64,000 bases of DNA, taken from positions 135,338 through 199,337 of the forward strand of contig JAJZQJ010000001.1 of NCBI GenBank assembly GCA_021851895.1, written 5' to 3'. The translations under genes and the position numbers were made by a program. A model generated the notes under the pieces. It was not told the origin of the DNA and made no database searches. It saw nothing but the letters and a program-made list of their open reading frames with translations. This document shows positions 2,683 to 48,232 of the stretch, piece by piece (within the stretch, counting starts at the first letter, position 1; the number at the start of each line of letters is the position of its first letter). The DNA is from a bacterium. Lineage in GTDB: Bacteria; Patescibacteriota; Minisyncoccia; Phycocordibacterales; UBA6899.

Positions 2683-3573
2683 TCATTGTCCAGGCATGAC
2701 ATAGACGACCTCTAGGGTGCCCTGTTCATATGCAGCCACCTGATATTGGCTAAAATAGAGGGTGATTCTCCCGTTGTCGACAGTAAACTCCTTGAAATTT
2801 CGTGGGTCCGGTGAGGTTCCCGCCTTCAGCCAACGCAACGCCGCATCACTCAGTTTCGCATTGAAGGCGCCTGAAAGCTGTTGCTTTAAGCTATCATAAG
2901 AGAATCCGGAGAGTTGATCGAGGTAGTTTGGGTCACCAGGAAACATGTCTGCGATCGCAAGTAAGCGATGTCCTCGAAGATCGTAATTGAATGTCTTCAC
3001 CTCATCGAGATCGTGAACACCGCCAGTCGCCCCATGTATACGCAAGAGCACACTGATACGATCCAGCCCGATCTCCGCGGGCTCCCATCGTATTCTAAGT
3101 AATAATTTCTCAGCTGAACTCGGCGTCCCCTGTGCGCTTGCCGCATTTCCAAGAGCATTCATCTTGGCGCTCCAGCTCTCGGTCGCAGTTCTCTCTTCAT
3201 CCGCAACGGCGCCCAGCACTGCGCCCTCGATCGCATTATTAAGATCGAGCGGTCCACGCACAAACTGCGGATAGGAGACATCACTTTTACTATAGGTGCC
3301 TTCTTTCACCTCAGCAACAATGCGGAGCATTGGGGTCACCGCCTGCCTCTTACTGAACATTGCGCTTGTATATGTCGCACCATTATTCTCATCGATGTAT
3401 GCGAAGTTAAGTGCAATCAGCACCCCAAACACCAATACAGCGACCGCGAACACCGCCTCCGCGATTTTTTGCTTATCCATGAGACAATTATCGCACATAC
3501 TATAATAATATGAAGTAAAGCTATACACAGCCATAATAATAGTTACCCACAGGCTCAAGTTGCAAACGAACAA
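2683..3573 (-). CDS. Paralogous DUF4163 + DUF3298 domain membrane-anchored protein
   Basis: N-terminal TM helix. C-terminal ITLYFSQYQVAAYEQG. Same architecture as 1846..2640. Confidence 0.5.
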   Translation of the reverse strand: MFVCNLSLWVTIIMAVYSFTSYYYSMCDNCLMDKQKIAEAVFAVAVLVFGVLIALNFAYIDENNGATYTSAMFSKRQAVTPMLRIVAEVKEGTYSKSDVSYPQFVRGPLDLNNAIEGAVLGAVADEERTATESWSAKMNALGNAASAQGTPSSAEKLLLRIRWEPAEIGLDRISVLLRIHGATGGVHDLDEVKTFNYDLRGHRLLAIADMFPGDPNYLDQLSGFSYDSLKQQLSGAFNAKLSDAALRWLKAGTSPDPRNFKEFTVDNGRITLYFSQYQVAAYEQGTLEVVYVMPGQ

Positions 3574-3587
3574 TTGTTCGCTATACT
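3567..3587 (+). promoter_or_regulatory. LexA operator (Cheo-type SOS box CGAACAATTGTTCG) abutting a TATACT -10 box upstream of lexA
   Basis: Perfect palindrome CGAACAATTGTTCG at 3567-3580, matching the Gram-positive-type LexA consensus CGAACnnnnGTTCG. It is immediately followed by CTATACT. The lexA ATG is at 3594. Confidence 0.6.
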
Positions 3588-3593
3588 AGAAAC

Positions 3594-4175
3594 ATGAGCA
3601 CACATGACGACGCGAAACATATTGCGCACCTAAAAGATTTTTATAGAAGACATGGGAGACTTCCCGCATATAAAGAACTCCTCTTTATCACAGGGTTCTC
3701 CTCGCGCGCCTCAGTGTTCGGCTTGATCAACCGTCTCTCGAAACAGCAATTCATCGCCAAAGACGACGAGGGACACCTCTCCCCCGGGCCACAATTCTTT
3801 GCGCGCCCAAAACTCGGCATCGTCGAAGCAGGCTTCGGATACGATGCTGACGAAATTCCTGACGATGCACATGCGATCGATGACTATTTGATCCAAAGAC
3901 CAGAGGCGACATTTCTTCTGACGGTAAAAGGTGAATCGATGATCGATGCAGGTATACTCCCCGGAGACATCGTTGTTGCAGAGCGCACAAGAGAGGCAAA
4001 GAATGGGGAGATCGTCGTCGCCGAAGTCGATGGCTCGTGGACGATGAAATACTACCGGAATGAGGCTGGTAAAATATTACTGATTCCCGCGAATCGCACG
4101 ATGAAGCCTTATTCTCCAAAGCAATCACTTTCCATCGCTGCAGTCGTACGTGGAGTAGTAAGAAAATACTCTTGA
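3594..4175 (+). CDS. lexA: LexA repressor (S24 peptidase family)
   Basis: N-terminal winged-helix region. C-terminal S24 autopeptidase with GESM serine motif and catalytic Lys (KGESMIDAGILPGDIVVAERT...GEIVVAEVDG...KYY). Own SOS box upstream. Confidence 0.85.
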   Translation: MSTHDDAKHIAHLKDFYRRHGRLPAYKELLFITGFSSRASVFGLINRLSKQQFIAKDDEGHLSPGPQFFARPKLGIVEAGFGYDADEIPDDAHAIDDYLIQRPEATFLLTVKGESMIDAGILPGDIVVAERTREAKNGEIVVAEVDGSWTMKYYRNEAGKILLIPANRTMKPYSPKQSLSIAAVVRGVVRKYS

Positions 4176-4178
4176 ACC

Positions 4179-4208
4179 GAGTCATGAGTTTAAGTCATGA
4201 GTCATGAG
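4179..4208. repeat. Left inverted-repeat arm (3x GTCATGA(G) heptamer array)
   Basis: Seen directly; exact reverse complement of 4584-4613. Confidence 0.8.
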
Positions 4209-4239
4209 ATAACCACAAAATAGTAATAGCATAAATACT

Positions 4240-4590
4240 ATGGAAAACTACGGCTTTAGAAAACTTATCATTTGGCAAAAATCGATGGATATTATTAGTG
4301 ATATATATAAGATGACAAAGAGTTTTCCAAAAGAAGAAATCTTTGCATTGACTTCCCAAATGCGCAGAGCTGCGGTATCTATACCCTCTAATATCGCCGA
4401 GGGTACAAGCAGAAAAACAAAGAATGACTATCAGCACTTCATGGCAATTACACGAGGGTCTTCACTGGAACTTGAAACGCAAATTGAAATCGCCCTTCGT
4501 TTAAGATATTGCACGGAAGCGCAAAGCTCGCCTTTACTAGAGAAAATTCATGAGATACAAAAGATATTGAATAAGTTATCACTCTCATGA
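4240..4590 (+). CDS. Four-helix-bundle protein of the 23S rRNA intervening-sequence protein family (PF05635/TIGR02436-like)
   Basis: 116 aa. MENYGFRKLIIWQKSMDIISDIYKMTKSFPKEE...SQMRRAAVSIPSNIAEG...LELETQIEIA matches the conserved IVS four-helix-bundle signature. Confidence 0.7.
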   Translation: MENYGFRKLIIWQKSMDIISDIYKMTKSFPKEEIFALTSQMRRAAVSIPSNIAEGTSRKTKNDYQHFMAITRGSSLELETQIEIALRLRYCTEAQSSPLLEKIHEIQKILNKLSLS

Positions 4591-4613
4591 CTCATGACTT
4601 AAACTCATGACTC
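4584..4613. repeat. Right inverted-repeat arm
   Basis: Exact reverse complement of 4179-4208. Confidence 0.8.
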
Positions 4614-5749
4614 GTTATATCCTCCACGGCGATGGCGATAACTTCTTCGCCTCCTGCCTCATCGCAAAGTACCCAAGCCTACGCGGCAAACCGCTCGTTG
4701 TTGGCGCAGAGCGCGGCATGGTGACCGCGCTTTCGATAGAAGCGAAGGCGATCGGGCTTGCTCGAGGAATGCCTATCTTCGAGGTGAGAGCGCGCTTCCC
4801 CGAAGCAGTCATACTCTCTGGAGACTATAAGCTCTTCGCTCAGGTATCGAGACGTATGCATAGCCTTATCGAGCAGACGACTGACGCCATTGAGAAATAT
4901 TCCATAGACGAATCTTTTGCGGATATCACTGAGGCCATAGAAAAACGTCGTTCCAGCCCAGAGATCATCGGCAAGGAGATCAAGGAGCGCACGTTTATAC
5001 AACTTGGAATACCTATATCATTTGGCATTGCTCCAACGAAAACCCTTGCAAAGCTCGTCTCTACATCAAGCAAGCCGAACGGATTTCGCGTCGCGATGAC
5101 CGACAAAGAACTCTCCCCTATCCTCTCTGAGGTTCCGATAGAGAAAGTATGGGGTATCGGCAGGCGCACCGCGATCAAGTTACGTGCGCGTGGTATTCTT
5201 ACTGCACTTGAATTACGCGACGCTCCGGTCGAAATACTCGCACACTTTGCAAGTCCGATCATCGACATCCAAAAGGAATTGCGCGGGACGATAGTGCACC
5301 CGATAAACAAAGAGGGGGCACTACAGCAGTCAATGATCTCGTCACTCTCATTCCCTGCCACCACAGACCGTACATTCATACACAAGGAATTCATTCGCCA
5401 TATCGAGCATGTCTGTGCGCGCCTACGAAAACACGAAGCAGTAGGACGTACATTTACCATTCACATCAAAAACAGTGCTCAGGAGTTGCGTAGTGAAACG
5501 TGTGTACTTCCACAACACGCAAACACACCAGGAACCTATATCGACCATTTTGAGAGACTCTTTACGCGGTTGATCAAAAAAGGTGAACGTGTGCGCACAA
5601 CGGGCATATGCATCAGTGACATCATACCTCAAAGCGCTGCAAATACCTCCCTCTTTGACCATCGCGATGTACGTGAGAACGAGATATACGCAACCCTCGA
5701 TCAACTGCACAAGCGTGGACTTGAAGTGAAAACAGGCACTGGGATTTAA
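4607..5749 (+). CDS. Y-family translesion DNA polymerase (UmuC/DinB-like)
   Basis: ILHGDGDNFFASC, YSIDESFADITE, GIAPTKTLAKL and VWGIGRR motifs match Y-family polymerases. Co-oriented downstream of lexA. The start ATG lies inside the right IR arm. Confidence 0.8.
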   Translation: MTRYILHGDGDNFFASCLIAKYPSLRGKPLVVGAERGMVTALSIEAKAIGLARGMPIFEVRARFPEAVILSGDYKLFAQVSRRMHSLIEQTTDAIEKYSIDESFADITEAIEKRRSSPEIIGKEIKERTFIQLGIPISFGIAPTKTLAKLVSTSSKPNGFRVAMTDKELSPILSEVPIEKVWGIGRRTAIKLRARGILTALELRDAPVEILAHFASPIIDIQKELRGTIVHPINKEGALQQSMISSLSFPATTDRTFIHKEFIRHIEHVCARLRKHEAVGRTFTIHIKNSAQELRSETCVLPQHANTPGTYIDHFERLFTRLIKKGERVRTTGICISDIIPQSAANTSLFDHRDVRENEIYATLDQLHKRGLEVKTGTGI

Positions 5750-5756
5750 AAAACGA

Positions 5757-5783
5757 AAACCCACCATATCATGGTGGGTTTTC
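5757..5783. terminator. Bidirectional rho-independent terminator between the polymerase gene and the giant gene
   Basis: AAAACCCACCATATCATGGTGGGTTTT hairpin with flanking A/T runs. Confidence 0.7.
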
Positions 5784-5789
5784 TATACA

Positions 5790-8700
5790 TCAGTTTGCAG
5801 AAACACTAATGAAGCCGTTATGCGTAAGTGGTTTCGTACCAAATGGGATATAAAGTCCGAAATAGAGATTATTGACCACTGGTGTTGTCGAAACTGGCTT
5901 CGGGAACGTCAAACTGAGTGGTGTTGTGCTTGTCGAGAGCGTCGTACAGAGCGTACAAGATGAGTAATCGAATGTCGATGTTGCAACCTTCTCATTATCA
6001 ACAGGAATCGTACTTCCTGTCGTTGTGAGGTCGGTTCCCGCAATATCGAGACCAAATTGCGCATTACCCGTATTCTGCAACGTCGCTGTCGGATTCGCAT
6101 ATGCTGGGGTCGTACTGCCGATATCGAGACTTCCGAAATCAACGTCCCCCGTAGTAAATGCGAGTGCTTTCAGCGTATTAAGTGTCGCATCCGCAGTTGC
6201 ATTGTCGTAGACATCTGCCATGTTATGCACATGTACTGCTGCAGTCCACATATCGCCTGCATAAGCACCGATATCCGTAGGCTCAGCGAAATACTGAAGG
6301 TCAGCCGTACACGTGAGCGTACACGAGATGCCCGCACAATCACTCAATGAACACTGCGTCTTCCCTCCGGTATAACAATTGTTGTCATTCGCCATACAAG
6401 ATTCACCGAGACTCTTGCGGAAGATCGTTCCTGTCGCAACTGGAGAGATATCCGTATAGCCACTGTAATCGGTCACTGTTCCCGTCGCCATGACGGTCGT
6501 CGTTCCTCCTTCATTGATAAGTGACAATGTCGGAGTAGTCCAATTCCAGTTCGAAATCTTCGGAGGATGTGAGACGGATGCCTCTGCGACCTTCGTATAT
6601 GAAACGAGACGATTTCCGTTGTCTGAGACACGGAAACAGTATGAAGGCTGAATAGCATTCGGAGTGATCTGCAGAGCATACTCAACCTCAGTGAAGAAGT
6701 TCTGGTTGATGTCGAGACCAGTCGTCTTATTCGACGGATCCTCGACGATGCGTCCAGTGACGAAATCAAGACCTTTCGGAGTAGAGAGTAACGGTGTCGT
6801 CGGATCTCCATCCATGAAGTATGTCGACGTCGACATACACACATCCTGTGTCGCACATGAACTTGCCGGGAGTACTGGTGTGTAATTTACGTCAGCCACC
6901 GACTCACAGTTCGGCGCAGCACCCTTGATCGCATAATCAAGTTCAAGCTGCTGATTGGTGAGTGGCGTTCCCGTATTCCTGATACTGAAGCGCAGGCGGA
7001 CCTTCTCTCCAAGAGATGCAGTACCATATGCCGTATTCTCTGGAGTGATCCACGATGCACCTCCATGCTGCTGTGGCGAGAGGACCGTAACTGTTGGCGT
7101 GCCCTTTACGAGCGGCGTTGCGGTCACATTGTCCCATCCACCATGCTGGTACCAATAGGAGAAACCTATACCTGAACCCGGATTGTAACTATCCGTCGCA
7201 GAGATGTTTGCCACTTGATTCCCATTCGGATCATAGAGCCATGCGGTGATCTTGCCTATCGCCTCCCAATCGATGCGCGCACTATACCAACCTGCGGTCG
7301 AAAGCGTAATGTCCTGTGAGGACACCTCCGCAGACGCATTCGGTATATATCCATCCTTCGTCGCATCCTTCACGAGGCGTACATTCTTTGCAGCCTGTTG
7401 TGGCGAGACACAGAATCCCCAGTTCGAGCCACTCGTCGAGTTCGCTCCAAATGTGAGACATGTATCGTCGTTCGATGTTCCATCGATATAGAGATTCTCT
7501 CTTATCGTGACCCCTGTGCCCACGACAGAACCTCGCGATACGCCCGCAGAGAGGTTTGCCATACCGAGCGTCTGACCTGTATCGGTCATCGCACGGAGGT
7601 ACTTCAGTCCGAGCTGTTCTAGTGGTGAGCGTGACGCCATGTCCACAGTCTTAAACGCGCCAGTATCACCGCTCATTCCCGTAAGACCTGATTCGCCATC
7701 GAAGAAGTAGGTGAACACATTCGCACCATTGGATGCCGCGGTGGCTGCCGAATTGCCATAGTAGACGTAGATATCACTTGCCGCATTCGCTGTGATCGTA
7801 GGTACCTTGACCCAGACATTCGCTTCGGCGGTCGTATAGGTATCTATCCAAAAAGGAATACTCGTCACGCCATCAGCTGCAGTAAATCGTATATCACGAT
7901 AATCTGCCTGCATCTGTGAGTGATACGGCAACTTCACAAGAACCGCGACATTTGATGCAGCCGAACTTGTGTTGTTCGTGATACTGACACGCTCGCGGTA
8001 TGGCCAGCTTGATGTCGCACCACCAAACCATTCACTATCGGGCACTGCTTCTGTTCCATCATCATGCCTCCACCTATAATAACGTTGATCGACGAACTGA
8101 CATGATGAATCATCCCATCGGAACGCACCGCAGTCACCTCCACCGTCGTTATCAAACGCCTCACCAGCGAGGTTTCCCGTCGCACTCATGAAGTTAAGTG
8201 CGTTTGTGCTCGTACCGTTAAGGTATGCGTTGACACCACTTGTATGCCCCACACCAAGCGCGAACATATCATTCGAGAGGATCGCACCTGCATTCATGTC
8301 GACGGTTGCACCATCGATCGATAGGATATTACCCGTGTCGACACCTGTTGCGAGATCCGCATCGTCGAGTGCGAGTATATGCGTATTTCCAAGAAGCTGG
8401 ATACCATTACCGGTCGTATTGCGCACCTTTAGGTATCGGCCCTCAAACGTTCCATCGGAAACAGTGAGGTCATAATTACCTGAAATCGACTGAACAGATG
8501 TCGTCGCCACGGACGTACCAACGATATGGAGTTCAGTGCCCGTATTCCACGTTCCAGAACTTCCTGGAGCGAAGCGTACATTCACCGTTCGTGATGCGAT
8601 CGGCGTTCCGTCGAAATTCGTGGTTGCTGACCAATAGTCCGCACCAGTATTTCTCACGTATTGACCATAGATCTGCAGTGCGCCATTTACATTCGCGTAG

Positions 8701-11700
8701 TTCTGCGCGTACAATGCAGCACCAGACCCCGTCGAAACACTCGTCGATGACGCGTTCCAGACAGATACCTGTGCGCTCGGACCAAGGTCGATAGTGCTAT
8801 AGCTCGATGCCGAAGCTGATTTCGTATTTATCGATGAGACACCAGTCTTTTCAAGACGCAACGTACTTCCTGTCCACGTACCGCCCACATTATTTGTAAA
8901 GAGGTCTTGCACGACGAGTCGCGTCGATGGTGACTGCACGAACGCTGCCGCAGTCTTGATCGTCATCGACTTTGTCGTCGTCGCATTGGCTTCAATAGTG
9001 AAGCCACCACCAGCTCCATCGATAATGAGATTAGTGAATGTGGAATTGCCAGGATTGATCAGTTTACCGGTCGTCGTCGCAGTCATTCGTACAGTAGAAG
9101 ATGCACCCGCACTGAATGCACCTGCGATGTTCTTGAATGTTCCTCCGACGGAGAATACCTCTGTTGGAAGCGCGAGGCTTCCGGAATCGATGTACACATC
9201 CCCCGTCGTTGTTGCATTCGCAACATTAGTTGAGAAGTCTCCATTTGCGATTCTCAGGTTTGCGAATGTCGAACCACCCGGAACAAGAAGTCGCGTGCCT
9301 GATCCGCTCAGAGAGAGCGTTCCACCGTTTGCATTGAATCCACCACCGATATTCTGGAAGTCACCCCCAACCGCGAGTGCACCTGCAGGCAATGTTGGTG
9401 TACCTGATGCGATAGTGAAGTTCCCTGTTGTCGTCGCATTATCGAGGAAGCTCCATGCGCCAGTGCCAAGGAAAGTGAGATCCTTGAACGCGCTACCGCT
9501 CGTTCTTATCTGCCTCCCCGTACTCGTCGCAGTCATATAGACAGCACCACCATTTGCACTGAACGTACCCGAATTGAGGAATGAACCTCCGATCGCGAGC
9601 GATGAAGATGGCAATGTCACCGTACCTGTCGTAATGGTCACATCACCAGTAGTCGTCGCGATTCCCGACATCGTCCACGACCCCGCACCATTGAAGGTGA
9701 GATTGGTCATGGTCGACGGAGACGCTGATGTGATCGATCGACCAGCTACAGCAGAAGTGAAGGTAAAGTCACCTGAGGTACCTGCGACATGAGCCCCTGC
9801 ACCAATAGAAAGATCGCCTCCTATTGTATACACGTCTGCTCCATTTGTAGTCCACGTCGAGCCTGGACGCAATTCAAGATCGCCCTCTATAGATGACGTA
9901 TTCGTATTTCCAGGGATCGAGACGTTTCCACCTGGAGCAAACGACTTCGCATCCCATACGAGAAGCTTTGTGTTTGTATCGAGCGTGAGTGCATTCGACA
10001 CGACGCGTGCAGGAATATTTGACGACTGATCCTTATCGAATCCATCGATCAAAGCATTAGTGATCGGATTCGACTGTTCATTTCGAACAATGACCGTATT
10101 CTCATAGAGATCGTAATCGGCAATGTTCGTCAGCGGATCATAAGTATAGGTCACCGCCTTCACGCCACTTGTCGATGTTGCAAACACTGCGAGCACATCA
10201 TTACCTGCTGGAAGAATGTTCGGAATACTGAAGCTTCCATCCGCTGCACTACATGCGGTCGCCACCGTAGTTGACGCGTTTATGACTCTCAAGACAACAT
10301 TTTGACTGACCCCATTACATGCAGAAGATACCGTGACTCCATCACTCTTATAGAAGTGCCCAGAGAGCGTGAATTGTGCAGTCGAATCATCCCAAATGAG
10401 GTAACCAGGATTGCCTGCGGGATCATTATCATAAGCCTCTCCATCGCGACCACCATAGTGATTAACGAATCGCCACGCAGAAGCAGTTGTACCGGTTGCA
10501 GTAACGTTATTTCCACCCGAGGCGATGAAGCCAAGGCGATACATGATCTTCACTGGGTTTGCAGATATCACCGAACCCGCGACCGTCATCATTGACCCTG
10601 TGCCGCTTGGATTTCGGAAGACCACATCATTCATTCCAGCGACCTTCACTGATCCAGTGAGCGATACGCCAGTTGTATTCGCATCTGAGATATCGAGATA
10701 CTGCATCGATGTCGTTGCACCACCTATCGTGAGCCCATATGTTCCTGAAAGTGCTCGCACCGTCGTTGTCGCAGACGGATCACCGACCATCTCGAGGATG
10801 CTCGTACCCGAATAGGTTGCTGTTGCACCCGAAGCGAATCGTACTCTTGCAGCACGTGGTGTTCCAAGTGTTTCGCCATCGAAGTCCTTCGTATAATCCC
10901 AATATTCTGGTGCGCTCGAATTCTTATAGTCACCGAAGATATAGAGATCTCCATTTACCCCTGCATGATTCATCGAGAGCACACCACTTCCCGCGGCCGT
11001 CACCATCTGCGTTGATGATGAATTCCACATCACTGCTTCCGTATTCACGCCGAGCTTCAAGATGTTATACACATCCGCTCCGCTCGTCTTCGTGTTGAGT
11101 GCAACGCGATTTCCTGTATTCAAATACAATGTTGAACCAGTCCATGTTGTCTTTGCACTACCCACAAGATTAAGAAATGCATTATCGATCTCGAGCGTCT
11201 TTCCTGAAGCAAGCGTCCAGCTTGAAACATCTGAGAGCGACACTACCGAAGCGGTTGTATTCCCCGTGAGAGTCCAACTTCCGAGTGGATCGTTGAAGTC
11301 GACTCTTCCGAACGCTGAATTACCCGCTGCGATCGTCTTCACCCCAGAACCGATGAACTGCACAAGTCCAAGCGAGTTCGTAAAGGTTCCTGCATTCGTC
11401 CAATTCCCCTTCACGGTCGTCGTCGCTGCATCGGATGCAATGTAGGTTGCTCCTGACGCGATCGACACATCACCAAGAATGGAAAGGAGTGGATCTCCTG
11501 AAAGCCCAGTCACCGTAGGAGTCGTTATTCCGTCACCAACAGTGAAGTTTCCCTTCACGACGAGCGCAAGACTTGGAAGTGTGTATGTTCCTGAGCCAAG
11601 GAACGTGAGGCCGTTATAGACGATATTCGTCACATTTGTTGCCCCCGCACTTGCATAAGTAACCGTACTACCGGTTGTATCGATCGTTCCATTCACAACG

Positions 11701-14700
11701 AGCGGAGTGCCCGTTGCGGTGAGCGTGAGTGGATGTGTCGCAAGATCAAGATCATGATTCATGCTGACCGTGAGTACTCCCGCAACCGTCGTTGTACCAA
11801 CACCACTCTTCGTGGTTGTACTGTTCGTCGTACCATCACCGAGCGTGAGGTTGAATGCGGTCCAAGGATTCGGACCTCCCCAACTTCCACCGTTCGGCAA
11901 AGCAAATGTACCACCAGTCATCGCGAGCGCACCGGCTCCGGTCGCTCCATTCTGCGTAGTGATATTTCCTGTGCCGAGAAGCGTTCCTGATGCGAGATCG
12001 AAGGTATTCGCAACAGCAATATCAGAAGCGAGCGACCATGACCCCGTACCAGTAAAACTCAAATTCCAGAATGTGAATGGGTTCACTCCCGCGATCGTGC
12101 GCGCATCGGTTGCCGTGAGCTGTACAGTCGATGAGGCCGTATTGAATACTGCTCCGGAATCCGCCTGTAAACGCCCGCCAATGCTGAAGAGTTCAGTACT
12201 CTGCGCATTCAGTGTTGCTCCATTATCGATATGCAATGCACCACCATACACACCAGTACCACCAGTTCCTGTCGTCACATTTCCGCCTGGGGTGAATGTC
12301 TTTCCTGCCCAAATCCAGAGCTCATCATTTGATGGAATGTTCAATGTTCCACTATTTGAGGTGAAGAGCATATCTGGATCATTATCTGCATCGAATCCAG
12401 CAAGTGCCGCATTCGTCATCGCCAGCGTATCTTCGTGGCGTAATATGACACGATCCTGATAAAGCGCTATACCCGAAAGGTTTACCGACGCACCTCGCGT
12501 GACCGTGACTGCCTTCGCATTCGGATTACCCTTCAAATATATAGACATCGTTGTCTCGCCAGAGAAGGTCACACCATTCACTGTGAAGTTTCCACCTGCA
12601 CCACATGTGCCTCCGAACGCCCCACCTCCTGTTACCTGGACTCGTACCACCGCAGTGACACCGTCGCAGACCGTAGCGCCCATTGGAAGGAGGTTTTTAT
12701 CGTAAACCGTACCAGAGACACTGATGATATAGCTCGAGTCGTCCCAACGGACCTCACCTGGATCTCCTGATGGATCGTTATCGAAGTTCTCGCCAGCGAT
12801 ATTCCCTCCATGCTGCTTAAATCGGATGTAATTCGTCGATGCACTCGTCACGCGCACGTTCTTCGTACCGGTAAATCCACCGCTTCTCCACATATCATGC
12901 GCATACTGTTTGCCCGCATTTGCGTCGATGACCTCTTTCGTGAGTGTCATCGCGTATCCCGAGTTGACTCCCGCACTAATATCAACATCATCGAAAGCCG
13001 CCAATGTAGACGAACCAGTGATCGATATTCCCGCGATGCCAAGATTCGAAAGCGTTGCATACTGCGCTGAGAGTGTGCTTGTCGCGAGATTGACTGCATA
13101 CGTCCCCGAAAGCGCACTCACTGTTGTCGTCGCAGACGGAGCGCCAACGATCTCGAGTGCTGTATTCGGCACAAAGTTAAGCGTCGAGCCACCAGCGATC
13201 GCTACCGCTACCGGTCTTGGTGTCGACAATAGCGTACCATCGAAATCGGTTCCATTATTCCAATATGCGGATCCTGAGTTTTGTGAGTATGTACCGTAGA
13301 TACGCAACGCACCACTCACTGCGCCCCAATTCTGTCCATAGAGCGAACTCCCCGCATTCGTCGTAACACTTGTTGCTGTCGAATTCCACATGCGCAACTG
13401 CGTACCATTGTCGAGAATGATCGCACCATAATCATCATCACCTGTATTCTTCGTATTGATCGACATCGTCGCACCAGAGGTGAGACGCAACGTCGAGCCA
13501 GTCCATGTCGTGTTTACATTCGCTGCAGCATTCGTAAAGAATCCATCGACGCGCAATTCGTTTCCAGTCTGCATCGTAAATGATCCCACGGTACCGATCG
13601 TCGTTGTTGCGCTGACGCGTGTATTACCAACGATGGTGAAGTTTCCACCACCGGCGATACCGAGGCCGGAGAGCACCGTTGTCCCCGCTGAGAGTGTTGC
13701 TGCACCAGAGGCGCGATTCATCGACAAGAGCGACGCATTCGCATTCGCCGTGCCATTATTAATGAATGATCCTCCAACGGTCAATGATCCGTTCGTTGGG
13801 AAATTCAACGTCGAACCCGCATTCACGATGATCGAACCCGCCGCAATTACATTAGTGTCGACAAACGTCAGATTCGTACCGCCAGCAGTCACTCCTCCGA
13901 TGGTCTTACCACCGAGAGCGATCGTCTGCGTACCACCATTCATGAAGAGCGTTCCGCCATTGTGTACGATGTTTGCAGTGTTACTGAAGTTTCCACCGAC
14001 AGTGAGTGTTCCCGATGGTAATGTGACCGCACCACCAGAGATCACGAGTTCTCCCGTCGTCGTCGCACTCGAAATAAAGTTCCAAGAACCTGTTCCCGTG
14101 AAGGAAAGCGCCTTGAAGCTTGAAATCGCGCTCATCTGCTTGTTTGCAGATGTACCATTCAAGATCGTCTGATTCGATGCCGTGAATGTACCACCGGTTT
14201 GAGTGAATCCACCACCAACGGTAAGCGTATTCACCGGTAAGGTGTGCGCTCCGCCTGAAACGAGCACATCTCCTGAAGTTGTTGCGGAAGTATCCACCCA
14301 GCTCACCGAACCACTCTGCAGGGTGACGTTATTGAGCACCGCACTTCCCTGCTTGATCGTTGCAGCCGCGACTGGCGCCATGAGCAACTTTCCTGTTCCA
14401 CCATTTACCGTACCATCATTTTCGAAACTTCCCGACAATGATAACGTATTCACTCCAAAGAAGAGTGTGTCCCCAGATGCAATAGTGACGTTTGTCGCAT
14501 GAACCCCCGAACTTAAGCTCAGTGACTTAGGAGATCCGTCGATGAGTATGTTACCGAGATCCTGTCCTCCTGAGGAAAGATCAGACCATGTCGCAACGGG
14601 CACACCAAGGAATGTCGTCGTCGCTGTACCCTTAGTGAACTTACCATTTGCACCAATCGAGAGACTGCTCTCTATTGATAGTGGCTGCGCTCCAGGCGAG

Positions 14701-17700
14701 AGTGTTCCATAATTTATCGCGAGACTACCATTGAGATAGAGCGGCGTCGTCGTCTGCCAGGTTGCTGTCGTCGCACTCTCGCCAAAGGTGACATCATTGA
14801 ATTTATACTGCGAAGCACCAGTATTATCTATCGTATGCACGCTCGATGTCGCATTGAAGACGGTGCGTCCTGTACCGGGAGTAAATATGCCAGAGTTACG
14901 CCAATCCCCAGAGATCTTGATGATGTTTGCATCTGCATTCGTCTCTCCTTCGATCACGTGAGCATACATCGTATTCGTGACACTTCCTGTCGACTGTGGA
15001 CGCCATGTCGTGCCCGAGAGCACGGCAAGCGAAGCATCAGGACATGGAAGTAGCGTACTTGCACACAACGTCAGATTCCCCGACGCATCAACATTATGGA
15101 AGATACTTGTACTCGTTGCGCCGCTCGTCTCATTACGATAATCGATGAGCCCGAGATCTGCGTTCGATATCGTTTCTCCAGTCTGTGTGAGGTCACCGAG
15201 CGTAAGCCAGCGTCTGGAAAGTTCCATATTCGAGAGACTACCCGCACCCATGAATTTCGCGACCGCGACGGCGCGATTTGCCGCACCAGGATTATTGATC
15301 CAAGCAGTCACGACGTCTCCATTACGGTATGAGACGCTCGGAATAGTCCAATGCCCCGTCGCATCAATGCTTCCCGTCTGTGCGCTCGGCACTCCATTTA
15401 CCGCGACGCTCACCGTTCCTGACGTGAGCACAGTTGTACGATCGTGGTCACGAGCGATACCGCCCACTGCAAGACCCTGTGCCCAATCGACGGTCCAATC
15501 ATTGAGTGTTGGACAATTCGTCAGCCCATTACATGCGAGGTCCGCACGCAACCTGATCGTTGTATATGTTCCGACATTCAAGCCCGAAAGATCGATCGGA
15601 CTCGTCGATGTCCCAACGCTGTTGCCCGGAAGATCGTTATCAGGAATACGCGTCCAATTCCCTGTCGGATCGAGATACTCGAGTGAAACGAGTGCGGTCG
15701 AACCTCCAGGAATACTCGTATTGAAGCGTGCCTGACGCCATGCAGGCGCTTGACCGTCTGCAAAGTTGATCGGCGAAGAGTAGATACGGCCCGTCGAAAG
15801 ACCCTCCTGCGTTGCAAGGTCAAATGGCGCACCGTACGGTTTCGTCGAAACAGATGGTGTGGCGATATTTTGCGGCGTCGTCCATGCCGACCCATTCCAT
15901 ATCGAGAACATATAGCGTAGGCTCGGCGAGCGTGAAAGGATCATCGCGAGCACATCGCCAGAGGCTGAGGCTCGTGCGAGCTTTGTCGTCCAAGCCTCTA
16001 CTCCACCCCACTGGTAGGTCGTTCCTGACCATGTCCAGAGCTTATTTGTATTGCTTGTTGAACCTGACTGCCATGTTCCCGCAGCGACATTTCGAGCATC
16101 CCAAATTGTATGATTATTTGTTGCACTTCCATCTGCTATCGCCCAAGACTCGTCGGCGACGACCATGAGGCGCCCAGTACGTCCAGGTTTCGTCTCATAG
16201 ATACAGCTATTGGATTGTGCATGACGCGAATATGGCCAATACTCACCGGGAGCGACACTCACCGGTGCAGTGTTGGTAAAACGGACATAATCGGTATATG
16301 CACCATCATCAGTTGCGGAATACTGGGAGTTTGTACAGAGCTCAAGATCATTGCTTGCGGGATCGCGCACAAGCTTTCCCCATGCGAGTTTGGCAATCGT
16401 CGCACCACCGCCCAAGTTTGTATAAGCAGCTTCTGCTCCAGACCAATTCGAGCCACCCCAAATTCTATAGCGGAATCCCCTTGTCGTATTTGCGCCGACG
16501 ATTGCAACTGCCCTGCCGCTTGTGCGCTCGAATTCGATATCCATTGCATCATGTGCAGGCTCAACGACTCCAGCACTTGCGCTGAAGGTAAACTCGCGTG
16601 ACGCAACCCATTGTGTACCATCCCACTCCTCAGCGGTAAATGAAGAACCGGTATTTCGGAAGAGCGCGAGGATCTGATTCTGGATGGGATTCGATGCCAA
16701 TTTCACAAGCTCACAGTTTGTCGTGAATGGGAGGTTGAGCGACTGCACCGCCCCCCATGTCGAACCATCAAAGACCGCGTACGACGCATCCATACCGTTA
16801 CATGCGACCGCGACTGCACGGCCACTAAGTGCCTCATACGCAACATCGAAACTCTTTCTCGTTGCCGAAGGACCCGATGCAGGCATTGTGAGCATACGCG
16901 ACCATATATCATTCTCGAAGACCTGGAAACTCATCGCACGATCAGCGCCCATCGTACCTAAAATGAATTGATCATATGCGGGCGAAGCCTTTGCGACAGA
17001 CCAAAGCACGGTCGAGTTGATCGAAAGTGCATTACCCTCAGCGCCAAGTGCGCCTGCCTCGTAGAAGCGATACTTTGGATTTGGATTACTGCCACTTCCA
17101 TAGACCATGAGCACACGATCACTGGTCGTTGCAACAGCGACACTATTGCTTGTGTTCGCATAAACACCCGAGAGTGTATCCATCTTGAATTGTCCTGCCA
17201 TCGTCTGAAACCACGTCGTATATGCTGGGGCTGCCGCCTGTGCGGTCACTGCGCGTGTATCAGACCAGAAGGACCAGGCACCACCACCAACACCATATGC
17301 AGCGATACGGTAGTAATATGTCGTTCCGCTCGTAAGCGGCGCACTCGGCACGAACTTGATGGTATGACCCGACGCAAACGGAGCAGTACCACCACTGGTC
17401 ATATCGGTGAATGTACCACACGCAGGTGCCGTCGGTGTCTGCGTATCGCTATAACATGTCGTTGATGCAGCGAAAGTCGGATCCGTAGAATAGGAGAACC
17501 AATAACGAATCGGATATGATTGCGGATCGATAGCAGAAAAGACAAACGGCGTTGATGATGCCACGCTTGCATGACTGAATGGACTCGTGATCGTCGGAGC
17601 AAGCGTCTTATACGCCCACTTTATCGTCCAATCACTGAGGACTGGGGTTGCGGTATTTGTGAAGTTCGCACGAACGCGCAACGATGGATATAGTTGTGGA

Positions 17701-20700
17701 TCAAGTGCTTTCAGTGACGTTGTCACTGAAAGACCCGTCGAATTCCCTGGGATCAAACTGTCGGGAACGAGCGACCATGTACCGCTCAAATCCTTATATT
17801 CGATCTGGAATGTGATTCCCCCGCCTGCATCCTTCGTAAACTCGAGACTTCCCCAAACAGTACCCATCGTCCCCTCACTAAAGATGAGCTCCGGAGAGAC
17901 GATCGTACCTGAGGTTGAAGTCGATGCGAGCCTTACTGCATTTCCGGTCACAGTCAATCCCGTTGACACATCTTGCGCGAACTGCGCATCGGTCGTTTGG
18001 AACCACGCCGAAACATTGAGCGAGGTGTCCACTGTAATTGCCTTTGCTATAGACCAATCACTGTACTGTGTGCTTCCTGTCGGATCCTTCGCACGCACAC
18101 GCCACCAATAGGTCGTATTATTCGTAAGCGCCTTCGCTTGCGGAACAGTGAATTGTACCGTATCCCCCGAGGTATATGGTGCCTTATTCGTCGGATTGTT
18201 CACATTGAGGAAATTCGATGCGGCATTGGTCGTCGAAAGGTCTACAAAAGGCGCACCAAAATTAGGATCGGTGTCTATCTGCACCTCGTAGTGCTCAGTA
18301 TTCGACTCGTCGTCTGCGGCAGAGAATGTGAATGTTGGCGTAGTTGTCGAAATCTTTTCATGATTGAACGGTGTTTTGAGGTCCGGCGCAAACGGAGCAT
18401 TATTTGTGATGAAGCTCGGAAAATTCTGATATGCCCCAAGGATCTTTCCACTATCCTCCACCATACGCAGACAGTACTGCGTCGACGAGGCCAGTGTGGT
18501 ACCTGCTTCAAGTGACCAGTCCCACTCTGCGTTCTCGCCAATACCCGTCGTATTGACGAAGTTCACCGAGCCGCTTGATTCACGATATGCCTGCTCGCGT
18601 CCAGGAGTCGTCGTCGAAAGCAGGGCGGATGGTAGTGCAGCGCCCTCATTAACGAGCGTGTTGTCATAACCCATAAGCGGCGCACCACTTCCTGGAGCAC
18701 CAACATCGTTCCAATTGAGTGCTGAGGCACAATTATTATCTGCTGCATACTGCAGTTTGAGCGGGAAAAGACCCGCGGTCGAGGTAGCATTCTCAACATG
18801 CATACCCATACGCACACGAAATACACTTCCCGGACGGAAACGATAGGTCGCATCCGCGACGGGCATGTCTTCAGTGACATCAACCGCTCCTGCTGGCCAT
18901 GGATCGACTGGCGTTAAGTCATTGACGTTATCATAGAATCGATAATCCGTCTGCGAAAACATCGGAATACCGACTGAACGTTTTGCGAAAACGACCGTGA
19001 TGAACGGTGGAAGATTTGAGGTTGTCGAGAAGGATGCAAGGTCGACCGTATGGGTGTGGTTTGGATCCGCTCCGAACAACGAGCCAGAGGTGACCGTCGC
19101 GCGTGCACTTCCCACTCCAGCATTTGTAGGCAAACCAAGAAGATCAGGATGGTCGTGTGAAGCATGTCCACCCGTCGCCCCTGCAGCTGCAGCAATTTTT
19201 ACGAATCGATTGCTAAGCACTCCGCCATCTGATGAAAGATTGATCCATCCTGCAGCAGGATCGGCGTCCCACATCGTGATAGCATCATTAGGAACAGGAC
19301 CCGCGGCAGTTGATTGTGCCAAACGATAGGTCACATATGGTGGGTCATTTGAAAGCGGTGGTGTCGTCGTGCTGATGAGCGTGTGTGTATGTGTAACCGT
19401 CGATACATATGGATATGTTCCACTCGTTCGACGAGCATACGTCGGACCACCGGTCGGCGCACCTAGCGTTCCCGAGACCGAATGTGCATGCGTTGGAGAG
19501 CCCGTTGCCATACCGACTGAGTTCTCTCCGTATGGATAGTTCCCTTCCATGCTCGTCAAAGCATTCCACCCTGAACTTGGGATGGATTCGAAGAGGACTG
19601 CTGCACCTGCAGGCAGATTCACTTCACCGGCAGTCTGCGATCGAAGGACGCGCAGTGAGAGTGATGGAGGGAGATTACTTCCGTCACCGAAAGTCGGCGT
19701 GAATGCATGCGTATGATCCTTATAGGAGAGGAAGTTCGTCGTACCTGCAGCAGGAACTGCAGTCGTATAAACCGCCGAGCTCACAGATGTAGTAAACGTA
19801 TGCGTATGCGTTGTCGCACCACCGGTAATACCATACGTCGACGAACCCATCGCCCAACGATCAAAGAACGGCCCAGTCGAAGAGGAAACGAGATCCCACC
19901 CCGCAGGAATACTCATGCCGTCAGTCCAATAGATGATCATCTTCCCTGCCGCATCAGATGCGACCTGCCATGTGCGCGGTTCGGTATATGCATTCGCTCC
20001 ATCACCTATCGTCGCAGGACCAAGGAAGAACATGTACGGCGAGATATCCGGTGCATCAAAACGATAGGTGAACTGATACACCTCACCAGGATTCATGTCG
20101 ACATCCCAACTAATGCGCTTCACTGCGTGCGTCTCATCTGTCCAATCGAGCGTCCCTCCACCGCGCTCAACGACGTCAAAATCACCAGGAATGAGATCGG
20201 AGATCTTTCCCTTGTAAGGCTCGCGCGAGAATACGCGCAACGTCATATTATACAAAGCGGTCGGGTTGATACGTGTCGGTCCTGAGCGTTCGATCACATA
20301 GGTCATGTGTGGAACAACAGAGAACGTATCACGAACATCTGCGAGGATGTTTTCTGCGTCATCAAGACGGACAAGGCGCACCATGTATTTACCCGCATCG
20401 ACAGGAGTGTAGCTTGCGGTGTAATCAGGAACATCGGTGATGTTGTTACCATTACAATCATTAGAAGCCGTAACGGGCACTTCGATGGTCGTACTTGCAG
20501 GAGTCGTCACAAAGAGCTTTAAGCGCGCATCACAGATCGTATTTCCTGTATCCGAAAGTGCACCCATGGTGATCTGCGCAGTCTCACCTTGTTCATAGGT
20601 TGCCTTATTGAAGTTCACCGCAAGGAGCGCCCAATAGAAATCATACGAATCCTCATAAGTTGATGAGCCTTCATGAATCTGCATGCGCAAGGTCAACTTT

Positions 20701-34292: not shown

Positions 34293-34631
34293 ATGTCTGA
34301 AGCACATAACGATAAGGAGTTTCTCGAATTTATAGTCCAGTCGATCGTCACAAATCCCGCAGGAGTCAAGGTCACTCGCGTCGTGGATGAGATGGGTGTT
34401 CTCCTTACACTCGATGTCGATCCCGCAGATATGAGCCGTGTCATCGGTCGCATGGGTAATACCGCAAAGGCGATCCGTACGCTTCTCCGCGTCGTCGGAA
34501 TGAAGCACAATGCTCGCGTTAATCTCAAGATCAACGAACCAGCAGGTGGCCGACCAATGCAGTCAGCAGGCGCAAGCGCAGCGGATGCGGATGCGGTTGA
34601 TGATGTCATCAACGATTTGAAGGCGGAATAG
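34293..34631 (+). CDS. khpA: KH-domain RNA-binding protein KhpA (YlqC/UPF0109)
   Basis: VIGRMGNTAKAIRTLL KH motif; small, about 110 aa, with an acidic tail. Confidence 0.7.
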   Translation: MSEAHNDKEFLEFIVQSIVTNPAGVKVTRVVDEMGVLLTLDVDPADMSRVIGRMGNTAKAIRTLLRVVGMKHNARVNLKINEPAGGRPMQSAGASAADADAVDDVINDLKAE

Positions 34632-34632
34632 A

Positions 34633-34709
34633 AGTAATCAGCAAGCGGTAATCAGTAATCAGGTTAATACCTGCATTTCCTGTTTACTGTTTACTGATCA
34701 CTGTTTACT
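34633..34709. repeat. Heptamer-array imperfect inverted repeat in the khpA 3' UTR (3x GTAATCA ... 3x TGTTTAC)
   Basis: AGTAATCAGCAAGCGGTAATCAGTAATCAGG - 17 nt spacer - TGTTTACTGTTTACTGATCACTGTTTACT. Lies between the khpA stop (34631) and its terminator (34730-34751). Confidence 0.6.
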
Positions 34710-34729
34710 TTCAAAAACATACAATCATC

Positions 34730-35850: not shown

Positions 35851-36264
35851 CTAGGAAAGGAACTCCCGCAGACCTTCGAACATCGCGTGCGCAGCGTAGG
35901 TGGCATCACCATCGTACAGCGGGAGGATGTAATCCTCCTTCGCCACCGCACCAAGGAGCCCACGAAGTCCATTTCCTCGAACTGCGATCGCGCCCAAGAC
36001 AGGACCATGAAAACCTGACGGCGTACCATTAGGAAAACAATTATGGAGAAAACATTTCCCCACGAAGTTCTCCGTGACACCGAGAAATTCTATCTCTGCA
36101 TGCTCTGCGAAGTGAAGCCTCAGCTTCTCCGTTTCATCATGCGCGAGCGCGAGCGCTGACAACATGATGATCGCCTTTTCCTTGTAACGAAGTCTTCCTC
36201 TGGAAAACTCCATGATATTCGATGCGGGAGATATCTCTCCACTGGTGGGAATTTTCCCTTCCAT
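35851..36264 (-). CDS. Hypothetical protein
   Basis: 137-aa ORF ending at the bidirectional terminator; no family recognised. Confidence 0.35.
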   Translation of the reverse strand: MEGKIPTSGEISPASNIMEFSRGRLRYKEKAIIMLSALALAHDETEKLRLHFAEHAEIEFLGVTENFVGKCFLHNCFPNGTPSGFHGPVLGAIAVRGNGLRGLLGAVAKEDYILPLYDGDATYAAHAMFEGLREFLS

Positions 36265-36351
36265 CGGACGTCCTTAAAAGTAAAAGTGCATGATTGAAAA
36301 GTGCTGCGTCTCTTTTTAAGCGACTCTCAATATACCATATTATATCAAAAA

Positions 36352-36419: not shown

Positions 36420-36462
36420 AATTAAATTCGAGGATTCCTACCCAAGATATATGAAACCGCTC

Positions 36463-36548: not shown

Positions 36549-36588
36549 AGACAGCGGCCGTGATTCTCACCACGACACCCAGAAAAAG

Positions 36589-36921: not shown

Positions 36922-36977
36922 GGGTCTCAGTTTAACAGAAAACATGAAATCGTCAAGCAGTAAAAGGCTCTTCTGGT

Positions 36978-48093: not shown

Positions 48094-48111
48094 ATGGTGG
48101 AATTATATCAT

Positions 48112-48209
48112 AAGTGAGAAGTAAGAAGCGAGAAGTAAGAAGGATCATTCATGGAAATATACATCTATCTTTCACTCCTTCTTCTTACTTCTTACTGTTT
48201 ACTTCTCAC
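48112..48209. repeat. Heptamer-array inverted repeat in the smc/rnc divergent intergenic region (GAAGTAA arrays), spacer encoding a possible 24-aa hydrophobic peptide
   Basis: AGTGAGAAGTAAGAAGCGAGAAGTAAGAAGGA - 31 nt - TCCTTCTTCTTACTTCTTACTGTTTACTTCTCACT. ATG at about 48151 (MEIYIYLSLLLLTSYCLLLTISIV) with AAGGA upstream. Confidence 0.55.
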
Positions 48210-48232
48210 TATTTCTATAGTATAGTGCGCAA

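Follow-up and report, generated by a model that had tools for sequence, protein, structure and literature searches.

An intervening-sequence-type element with a four-helix-bundle gene at the junction between lexA and a Y-family polymerase gene

Introduction

In the 64-kb stretch of bacterial DNA that has been analysed here (hereafter, the window), a lexA-like gene and the gene of a Y-family translesion polymerase are parted by 431 nt, and this space is filled by an inverted-repeat cassette, which encodes a four-helix-bundle (4HB) protein of the S23p family (PF05635), i.e. the family of the intervening sequences (IVSs) of rRNA genes. The comparison of the same junction in close relatives shows that the cassette is a discrete insertion/deletion unit, since filled sites, empty sites, sites with a different, ORF-less element and sites with a remnant all occur. 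Our interpretation, which we consider rather probable, is that an IVS-type element is located at the stop/start junction of lexA and the polymerase gene, and that its arms pair in the transcript, rejoin the two cistrons and offer a site for RNase III.

IVS elements and S23p proteins have been known since the early 1990s, and in the papers that we have searched, the origin, the mobility and the function of IVSs are still described as unclear. A preliminary description of this locus had already recognised the IVS-family gene in its inverted-repeat cassette, seamlessly placed between lexA and the polymerase gene; the main elements that it listed do exist, at or within 1-2 nt of the positions given below.

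Results

The operon and the cassette

The locus comprises the following features:

3560..3587, plus strand: promoter-like site from a consensus scan, TTGCAA (3560-3565) and TATACT (3582-3587) with a 16-nt spacer
3567..3580, no strand assigned: LexA box of the Cheo type, CGAACAATTGTTCG, within the promoter spacer, conserved in relatives
3594..4175, plus strand: lexA-like repressor gene, N-terminal domain and S24 peptidase domain (Peptidase_S24, E 2.8e-24)
4178..4209, plus strand: 5' arm of tandem AGTCATG-type heptamers
4240..4590, plus strand: 116-aa 4HB ORF of the S23p family (PF05635, E 1.2e-39; TIGR02436, E 7.7e-37)
4583..4614, plus strand: 3' arm of CATGACT units, the exact reverse complement of the 5' arm
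4607..5749, plus strand: Y-family (DinB/UmuC-like) translesion polymerase gene (IMS, IMS_C and IMS_HHH domains)
5755..5783, no strand assigned: 13-bp GC-rich hairpin from the scan, between the polymerase gene and a convergent giant gene

The arrangement is that of a predicted SOS operon: a LexA-type repressor gene, which scores 96.5 with the lexA model TIGR00498 (under its cutoff of 110.95), is preceded by a palindromic box that overlaps the putative promoter. The box is the sole match to CGAAC-N4-GTTCG in the 64 kb, the promoter-like site upstream of lexA is the only one that bears a LexA box, and the same layout (TTGCAA-16-TATACT with the box) is repeated in three relatives (L002, L184 and L185). 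The lexA mRNA is probably leaderless, because the ATG lies only 6 nt past the -10 hexamer.

A consensus scan has found no promoter-like or terminator-like site on the plus strand inside the cassette, a result that cannot prove co-transcription, and a single weak match on the plus strand of the region 3600-5750, at 4994, inside the polymerase gene. The LexA control presumed in the preliminary description agrees with this distribution of sites, and the lexA-polymerase pair would appear, as far as can be judged from sequence, to be LexA-controlled, in what is apparently a Paceibacteria-type bacterium of the candidate phyla radiation (CPR). The neighbours of the cassette are lexA and the polymerase gene, beyond which lies the gene of a giant DUF2341 protein; the hairpin at 5755-5783 is scored as terminator-like on the minus strand only, and likely also marks the 3' end of the lexA-cassette-polymerase unit.

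The cassette (4178-4614) is 437 nt long, and its arms form an inverted repeat with 100% complementarity, for which no comparable match has been obtained in 100 shuffles. The arms had been described as perfect 30-bp repeats, the left one starting 4 nt after the lexA stop; they are indeed perfect and adjacent to lexA, but they measure 32 nt, and the 5' arm begins 2 nt past the stop codon. Tandem Repeats Finder (TRF) detects a period of 7 with 4.4 copies in each arm, and the folded transcript contains the long stem that had been anticipated, of 32 bp, with z = -6.4. The cassette ORF has the same orientation as the operon; its TGA (4588-4590) and the polymerase ATG (4607-4609) are both located within the 3' arm, as previously described, and the terminal unit of the element supplies codons 1-2 of the polymerase, ATG ACT.

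No second copy of the cassette arm has been found within the window, and a scan of viral contigs for exact matches to AGTCATGAGTCATGAG has returned 8 loci, all of them lacking a nearby PF05635 ORF, a result that is uninformative on other copies. Domain searches have revealed neither a transposase-like gene or transposase domain nor a recognised catalytic motif in the 116-aa protein; at Rfam gathering thresholds no rRNA or other family is present in the window, the region 36250-36650 giving chance-level matches only. No RNase III signature has been found in the 64-kb window, which by itself is uninformative about the genome. An origin by artefact or chance can be rejected, as the same architecture occurs in independent NCBI, ENA, JGI and Logan assemblies.

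The same junction in relatives

Close relatives have been gathered by exact-protein look-ups; a polymerase-alignment scan of genome contigs did not contain the clade of the window (best identity 42%), and therefore gave outgroup junctions only. The same cassette with the same synteny is found in L002, L003/L004 and L005. In L185 and L188 the junction is empty, consisting of TGA, 8 nt and ATGACT (footprint AGTCATGACT); the search for an empty site in relatives, which the preliminary description had recommended, has thus succeeded, and the gene is not universally present between the same flanks; its universal presence is what the description had named as refuting its own proposal. ORF-less elements with a different, AGGGAAT-type unit occupy the junction in L184 and L189, the L184 remnant folding no better than shuffled sequences (z = -0.24), and the junction of L190 holds a lone 3' arm. 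The flanks of L002 and L189 are 89-91% identical, while their elements are different. The N-terminus of the polymerase reads M-T-R with AGTCATG elements or footprints and M-R-Y with AGGG-type elements; there is a single TCATGA at the empty sites, and the filled site has one at each outer end.

In a neighbour-joining tree, the cassette is present in both subclades of the lineage, and across the relatives divergence runs in parallel for lexA (85/80/69%), the 4HB protein (78/68/63%) and the polymerase (77/54/60%). The dN/dS ratios (4HB 0.061, polymerase 0.058, lexA 0.048) are rough values, as dS is saturated; the 4HB protein is under purifying selection. Because the cassette is carried by both subclades and the divergence of its protein parallels that of its two neighbours, a recent insertion is rejected: of the mobile-looking insertion that had been suggested, the insertion/deletion unit stands and the recent arrival does not. 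From these comparisons, the cassette appears to be old at the junction and to have been lost or replaced repeatedly, and precise loss is the best reading of the empty sites.

Among 80 polymerase loci of Patescibacteria, lexA is located directly upstream in 54, with a gap of at most 60 nt in 32 of these, which suggests that the compact lexA-polymerase bicistron is the ancestral state. One of the 54 outgroup junctions holds a PF05635 cassette: in L055, a distant member of the Patescibacteria, the cassette protein is 34% identical and the arms are different (9-mer units), and the polymerase ATG is likewise inside the 3' arm. At the L064 junction there are ORF-less inverted arrays of the same unit class as the arms of the window, and other lexA/polymerase junctions in Patescibacteria hold unrelated cargo, including GIY-YIG, PemK and Gp49/HTH genes.

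Regularities of the PF05635 family

Significant inverted repeats flank the gene in 71 of 93 PF05635 loci (median element size 455 nt across the 71), and the period is 7 in 51 of the 57 loci with clear periodicity; the number of heptamer units per arm has a mode of 4-5 and a median of 5 in both arms. The unit is strand-asymmetric, of the form AGTNNNN on the 5' arm (consensus A-G-T-G-G-N-Y): the 5'-arm consensus units contain AG in 48 of 56 cases versus CT in 8, and GT in 45 versus AC in 10. The heptamer build of the arms, with its strand asymmetry, is therefore general in the family and nothing peculiar to this locus.

The elements also abut genes in a directional manner: of 66 loci, 58 have a same-strand upstream stop codon at the 5' arm, with a median gap of 1 nt (mirror control 20/66), and of 62 loci, 49 have a same-strand downstream start codon close to the 3' arm (mirror control 27/62). 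A G.U wobble asymmetry has been tested as a sign of sense-strand RNA pairing, with a negative outcome: over the 71 loci, G.U pairs are not favoured on the sense strand among the arm mismatches (61 vs 57, p = 0.78), which are mostly transversions, so that this test gives no support for selection on the RNA duplex as such.

In none of the 98 other family loci does a lexA or polymerase gene adjoin the PF05635 gene. A specific association of the family with SOS genes is therefore rejected, and the placement within an SOS operon, which had been offered as a clue to the function of the family, looks like one tolerated junction instead, in keeping with the unrelated cargo that the junction hosts elsewhere.

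Other heptamer arrays in the window

Two further inverted heptamer arrays, both ORF-less, are located in the window:

34631..34710, plus strand: AGTAATC units and the reverse complement of AGTAAAC (fold z = -6.1)
48110..48215, plus strand: AAGTAAG-type units (fold z = -7.6)

The first array starts directly after a stop codon and belongs to the unit class of the cassette arms; the second ends 18 nt 5' of the ATG of the ORF at 48233. No cognate protein gene for AGTAATC or AAGTAAG arrays has been found in the window. The preliminary description had left these two hairpins unconnected to the cassette, and had pointed to 36352-36419 as a degenerate, ORF-less copy of it; this candidate is weak, as its AGTCATG units are direct instead of inverted and its fold has z = -2.7.

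Discussion

A probable transcript-level element at a stop/start junction

According to the reading that we favour, the element would be transcribed within the operon, from the LexA-repressed promoter, and its arms would pair in the RNA as a helix of 32 bp, with the 4HB ORF in the loop. The helix would set the lexA stop codon, 2 nt from its base, beside the polymerase ATG, which would be buried 6-8 nt deep in the helix; a ribosome that ends its translation of lexA would melt the helix base and expose the ATG, maintaining the tight coupling of the empty sites with their 8-nt gap. The same helix is a predicted RNase III substrate; its cleavage may free the 4HB RNA, after which the polymerase mRNA would retain only a very short leader, and this organism seemingly starts lexA with no leader at all. 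The element would be tolerated because the stem rejoins its flanks, the same reason as for IVSs in rRNA. Against this reading stand the strand-asymmetric AGT motif, for which a plain stem does not account, and the arm mismatches without a G.U bias.

A different role for the arms, which we regard as a speculative though compatible addition, is that the 4HB protein is a pentameric, sequence-specific binder of heptamer arrays, in RNA or single-stranded DNA, its targets being the arms of its own cassette and perhaps also ORF-less arrays at other sites; on this view the inverted repeat would consist of two operator arrays and not merely of a stem, and the binding could be layered on top of the pairing. 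The strand asymmetry of the units points in this direction, as do the purifying selection on the ORF and the arm mismatches, whose lack of G.U bias argues against a pure RNA-duplex constraint. The typical arm of five units is in line with the closest solved homologues, each deposited with five chains, and with Xcc0516, which is described as a homopentamer (cited in PMC4990558), but five units are also simply about 35 bp of helix. The orphan TAACTGA repeats (PMC4679880), which lack a known binder, fit the form of the 3' arm, NNNNACT. Against binding stand the ORF-less arrays of the window, which use other units (AGTAATC, AAGTAAG) with their cognate gene absent from the window, and the Coxiella protein, which is apparently not made (PMC4990558); moreover, protein and arms are co-inherited, so that any correlation between protein and unit comes free.

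In its widest form, which is equally doubtful, the proposal is that PF05635 proteins are pentameric rings that read tandem AGTNNNN arrays, one unit per subunit, each cassette being a protein-address pair. If so, cassettes and their ORF-less derivatives would constitute a widespread, unrecognised layer of post-transcriptional control at operon junctions, which would explain the rRNA IVSs, the many "S23p / four helix bundle" genes of operons, and the orphan TAACTGA and STRR arrays; in the window, the array-reading system would gate the translation of the error-prone polymerase, because the polymerase ATG sits in the array.

That the Y-family polymerase has recruited the 4HB protein as a partner induced in the SOS response, with the cassette being kept for a role in translesion synthesis or mutagenesis, is rather improbable. 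Avd, an obligatory accessory factor of a mutagenic reverse transcriptase, would provide a precedent, and the conservation of the cassette between lexA and polymerase in two subclades, at a dN/dS of about 0.06, together with the L055 cassette at the very same junction, could be understood in this way. However, close relatives with an intact lexA and polymerase have precisely lost the cassette (L185, L188) or carry ORF-less elements in its place (L184, L189); the lack of lexA or polymerase neighbours in the other family loci and the rarity of the cassette at outgroup junctions also speak against a partnership, and the protein scores 34.6 with the NCBIfam Avd model (NF033474), against a cutoff of 80.

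Least probable, and by our estimate very unlikely, is a classical DNA transposon or MITE-like element, with terminal inverted repeats (TIRs) read by a transposase in trans or by the small protein, a TCATGA target-site duplication (TSD) and incidental RNA traits: the inverted repeats, the filled and empty sites that differ exactly at the arm ends, the ORF-less derivatives and the swapping of elements between genomes with about 90% identical flanks would fit, but the TCATGA found once at empty sites and at both ends of filled ones is not diagnostic, because it is part of the repeat unit itself, no transposase-like gene, recognised catalytic motif or second identical copy is present in the 64 kb, and the strict co-orientation and stop/start abutment, unusual for DNA transposons, indicate selection at the transcript level.

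Significance

Elements of the IVS type, known for interrupting rRNA genes, also live in ordinary operons, and the single junction described here offers a natural set of alleles, some filled, some empty, others swapped or decayed. The locus also has a protein-coding version of the IVS that is clearly under selection, and the polymerase gene, which starts within the element, can serve as a readout. In this lineage, the expression of the translesion polymerase probably hinges on the handling of a selfish RNA structure. The regularities of the family, i.e. inverted arrays of about five heptamers, co-orientation and stop/start abutment, lead to testable hypotheses on the protein and its arms, and could tie together several scattered repeat phenomena.

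Comparison with known systems

The compact SOS bicistron shares with our locus the LexA box in the promoter and the order of lexA and polymerase on the same strand; it has a gap of at most 60 nt in the 32 outgroup loci, whereas here a foreign element of the IVS type lies between the genes. The Avd proteins of diversity-generating retroelements (DGRs; 4DWL, 8UB7) are about 13% identical to the 116-aa protein, and unlike the cassette ORF, their genes are not described with flanking inverted heptamer arrays; an identification as a DGR Avd is rejected by the score given above and as no reverse transcriptase gene adjoins.

Short ORF-less IVSs and MITE- or REP-like hairpins resemble the ORF-less arrays of the window (34631-34710, 48110-48215) and of L184, L189 and L064; the arrays have a conserved AGT with a variable tail, whereas MITE- and REP-like elements have one conserved palindrome and a RAYT-type or IS transposase. 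PF05635 genes are numerous in Beggiatoaceae, Cyanobacteria and Bacteroidetes, and STRR heptamers of cyanobacteria were reportedly described by Mazel in 1990. Like the arms, intergenic heptamer repeats (TAACTGA, STRR) occur as 2-6 tandem heptamers a few nt upstream of start codons. TAACTGA direct repeats are found near start codons in the same three groups (MacGregor 2015, PMC4679880), and TAACTGA is a cyclic permutation of GATAACT, i.e. of the NNNNACT form of the 3' arm; we infer that the two may be connected, although the published description of the TAACTGA arrays is one of direct repeats, with no partner arm, associated protein or link to PF05635 (PMC4679880).

The closest resemblance is to the IVSs of 23S rRNA (helix 45 of Coxiella burnetii; Leptospira), with which the cassette shares a PF05635 ORF of about 115-125 aa, a total size of about 430-450 nt, terminal inverted repeats that form a stem of about 30 bp around the ORF (the usual total size of such IVSs being about 0.4-0.8 kb), tandem heptamers from the stem base to the ORF on the 5' side, and a sporadic presence among relatives. 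The Coxiella IVS, in particular, has 428 nt, a 28-bp terminal stem, an S23p ORF with tandem heptamers upstream of it, and a mid-stem cleavage by RNase III that has been experimentally shown (PMC4990558); for the cassette, the 32-bp duplex of the fold is a predicted substrate. The host site differs, being an rRNA helix for the IVSs and a protein-coding operon junction here, flanked by lexA and the polymerase gene, so that the cassette lacks the IVS trait of an insertion in a helix of a 16S or 23S rRNA gene. The Coxiella ORF is decaying and apparently not expressed (PMC4990558), whereas the cassette ORF is clearly under purifying selection, and unlike an rRNA IVS, the cassette provides the start codon of the downstream gene.

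The lexA-polymerase operon and the unit at its junction

The arrangement given in the preliminary description is borne out by the reading of positions 3300-6300 and by the list of open reading frames (ORFs): a lexA-like gene is separated from a Y-family polymerase gene by a unit of two inverted arms, which enclose the gene of a 116-aa four-helix-bundle (4HB) protein.

Features of the operon and its surroundings
3560-3565 and 3582-3587: promoter-like site from the promoter scan, TTGCAA and TATACT with a 16-nt spacer
3567-3580: LexA box CGAACAATTGTTCG, inside the spacer of the promoter-like site
4178-4209 and 4583-4614: inverted repeat, 32 nt, perfect
4240-4590: enclosed 4HB ORF, a clear member of PF05635 / TIGR02436
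4607-5749: Y-family polymerase ORF with IMS, IMS_C and HHH domains
5755-5783: 13-bp GC-rich hairpin directly past the polymerase gene, before a convergent giant gene; terminator-like on the minus strand only, according to the scan
5790-24683, minus strand: one 6297-aa ORF with DUF2341 domains, convergent with the polymerase

The pattern CGAAC-N4-GTTCG has a single occurrence in the 64 kb, i.e. the box at 3567-3580, and the lexA-like ORF, which contains a Peptidase_S24 domain and whose match to the LexA equivalog model falls short of the cutoff, starts at position 3594, 6 nt past the -10 hexamer. The distance from the -10 hexamer to the lexA ATG is 6-8 nt in four genomes (the window, 3582-3596, and the homologous loci L002, L184 and L185), and because of this short spacing the lexA mRNA is probably leaderless in their lineage. 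The relatives of the polymerase carry the taxon names Candidatus Paceibacterota or Patescibacteria; genes homologous to the giant gene occupy the same place in loci L184, L185, L188 and L189.

The 3' arm of the unit holds both the stop codon of the 4HB gene (4588-4590), the only PF05635 ORF in the window, and the polymerase ATG (4607-4609). No comparable inverted-repeat match occurs in 100 shuffles, and the RNA fold across the unit forms a complete 32-bp stem (z = -6.4), the long stem for which a transcript fold had been proposed as a check.

States of the junction in close relatives

The three closest 4HB proteins (78, 68 and 63% identity; loci L002, L003/L004 and L005) are all encoded between lexA and the polymerase, with arms of AGTCATG or AGTCATA heptamers; the arms vary between loci in number and sequence, yet are complementary within each locus (in L005, GTCATAA in the left arm and TTATGAC in the right arm). 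The lexA, 4HB and polymerase genes diverge in parallel across the relatives, with dN/dS values between the window and L002 of 0.048, 0.061 and 0.058 respectively, which are rough because dS is saturated. The 4HB protein is kept by selection in this lineage.

Closer polymerase relatives, found by exact look-ups and set in the same surrounding synteny, display other states of this junction, among them the empty site that had been suggested as a check: L185 and L188 lack the cassette and have a gap of 8 nt, the junction of L185 reading TGA-ACCAAGTC-ATGACT. ORF-less elements of 110 and 174 nt with AGGGAAT-type arms are present in L184 and L189 respectively, the 3' arm alone remains in L190, and L187 has an AGGGTAT-type 3' arm at the end of its contig; L002 and L189 carry different elements while their lexA and polymerase DNA is 89-91% identical. 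What occupies this stop/start junction is a discrete, co-oriented unit of insertion or deletion. In a neighbour-joining tree of the polymerase, AGTCATG cassettes occur in both subclades, which argues that the cassette is ancestral to the group and that the empty sites are precise losses. The empty sites keep one unit, AGTCATGACT, a 10-bp palindrome that spans the ATG, and the polymerase begins with M-T-R wherever the AGTCATG element or its footprint is present and with M-R-Y beside the AGGG-type elements; judged from these sequences, the ATG-ACT of the polymerase is therefore donated by the element.

The junction across Patescibacteria

One genome per GTDB species was scanned; the results do not include the close clade of the window and comprise 80 Patescibacteria polymerase loci of 33-42% identity, of which 54 have lexA as the immediate upstream gene, in the same orientation. 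The gap is at most 60 nt in 32 of these 54 junctions, the stop and start codons often overlapping, while the remaining 22 (within L024-L103) contain inserts: a second PF05635 cassette (L055), two ORF-less repeat hairpins (L064, L042) and unrelated cargo, i.e. GIY-YIG (L066), PemK/MazF (L093), Gp49 with HTH (L096), a YgjP-like metallopeptidase with a small ORF (L043, L073), NTP_transf_2 (L075) and DUF5680 (L077). A conserved 43-aa ORF (MTTxT..LYQLxSFERVLRR), without a match in Pfam, is found at five junctions (L046, L062, L077, L082 and L089). The lexA-polymerase junction behaves like a slot for cargo.

The cassette of L055 has arms that consist of 9-mer units and are 92% complementary over 38 nt; its left arm begins 1 nt past the lexA stop and its right arm contains the polymerase ATG. 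Its 4HB protein is only 34% identical to that of the window, and since hundreds of 4HB proteins from unrelated contexts have at least 50% identity to the latter, the L055 cassette is most simply read as an independent acquisition.

Architecture across the family

The broader regularities are the more interesting result. They come from 18 viral-contig loci, 80 metagenome loci, the loci of the relatives and the window; the loci were chosen as best matches to a SIPSNIAE-type profile, so that the sample represents one large subfamily and not the whole of PF05635.

Architecture of the sampled elements
Inverted repeat in the flanks that exceeds 99% of shuffles: 71 of the 93 loci with both flanks
Period, among clearly periodic loci: 7 in 51, 8 in 5, 9 in 1
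5'-arm consensus unit, sense strand: AG 48 versus CT 8, of 56
Same 5'-arm units: GT 45 versus AC 10
End of 5' arm to ORF ATG: median 21 nt
Stop codon of the ORF to 3' arm: median 3 nt
Length of the cassette: median 455 nt
Number of units in an arm: mode 4-5, median 5
Same-strand ORF upstream that ends at the 5' arm: 58 of 66, median gap 1 nt (mirror control 20 of 66)
Same-strand ORF downstream that starts close to the 3' arm: 49 of 62 (mirror control 27 of 62)

When the units are rotated into phase with one another, their consensus reads A-G-T-G-G-N-Y; the AG/AGT start is common to the loci, and the unit sequence otherwise varies between them. Two PF05635 ORFs lie within about 5 kb in each of L021, L124 and L183, which suggests tandem or clustered cassettes. 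One paper reports 23S_rRNA_IVP genes wedged between cas genes; within limited literature access, no paper was found that describes this architecture as general or assigns it to operon junctions, and this absence is not proof of novelty.

Heptamer arrays of the same AGT-type class as in the cassette arms also occur in the window without an ORF.

ORF-less arrays (TRF and folding)
34631-34710: inverted heptamer array, AGTAATC / AGTAAAC, z = -6.1; directly past a stop codon, ahead of an intrinsic terminator
48110-48215: inverted heptamer array, AAGTAAG type, z = -7.6; ends 18 nt before an ATG

The "degenerate copy" of the arms previously placed at 36352-36419 is weak, its units being in direct orientation (z = -2.7). 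Next to it, at 36430-36570 on the minus strand and downstream of ORF 36622-37089 (by eye, ribosomal protein S16-like), there is a hairpin, GC-rich and roughly 100 nt long (-64.5 kcal/mol, z = -4.7), that matches nothing in Rfam at the gathering threshold or at E <= 1 and may represent a leader or small RNA not yet recognised. At 51798-52075, a 109-bp unit is repeated 2.6 times with 100% identity (TRF score 556), each unit holding a terminator-like hairpin, ACACCCCTAACGGGTGTTTGTTTTT. In an IMG/VR contig (L198, ~4960-5160), arrays of CTCATGC, CTCATGA, AGTCCAT and CAGCGT type are adjacent within about 200 nt; no PF05635 ORF was detected there, and the cluster may be a pile-up of ORF-less arms.

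Predicted coupling of translation and the role of the 4HB protein

The cassette would be transcribed from the LexA-controlled promoter and its arms would pair in the RNA, which would place the lexA stop codon (4173-4175) 2 nt from the stem and pair the polymerase ATG with 4183-4185. During termination a ribosome occupies about a dozen nucleotides downstream of the stop codon; one that terminates on lexA would therefore unwind precisely the stretch of helix in which the polymerase ATG is hidden, and this opening of the helix base would recreate the coupling that the empty junction has through its 8-nt gap. By analogy with the rRNA IVSs, for which this has been demonstrated, the arm helix would also be a canonical RNase III substrate.

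Two observations do not fit a plain-stem model: the AGT is conserved in a strand-specific manner, and the 290 arm mismatches have no G.U bias (61 sense versus 57 antisense). Together with the five-unit mode per arm and the pentameric, RNA-binding relatives of the protein, they keep open the idea that the 4HB protein reads the heptamer arrays. Among the relatives, Xcc0516 is a toroidal homopentamer, according to its citation in PMC4990558, and the DGR accessory variability determinant (Avd), a pentamer with positive charge, binds a stem-loop of RNA within the DGR ribonucleoprotein. The family is described as functionally uncharacterised in the literature within reach (bioRxiv 10.1101/2024.02.27.582315; PMC3936711).

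The placement in an SOS operon, which the preliminary description regarded as a clue to function, is only weakly informative: an SOS context occurs in 0 of the 98 other family loci. This count, the precise loss of the 4HB gene in close relatives and the miscellaneous cargo of the junction elsewhere also make it less likely that the protein serves the polymerase as a dedicated partner. Identity with Avd was rejected: the NCBIfam equivalog score, 34.6, is below the cutoff of 80, and the 4HB gene is not adjoined by a gene for a reverse transcriptase.

Comparison with the rRNA intervening sequences

The identity and the cassette nature of the element had been recognised correctly from the sequence. 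The Coxiella IVS fits the same plan (PMC4990558): it is 428 nt long with a 28-bp terminal stem, the heptamers upstream of its S23p ORF are GACAGAT (AGATGAC when set in the AG phase), and RNase III cuts it midway along the stem. The element of the window differs from the rRNA IVSs in the defining feature, i.e. a location inside rRNA, and shares with them the other features that could be tested; the best classification is an IVS-type element whose host site, the junction of a protein-coding operon, is of a new kind.
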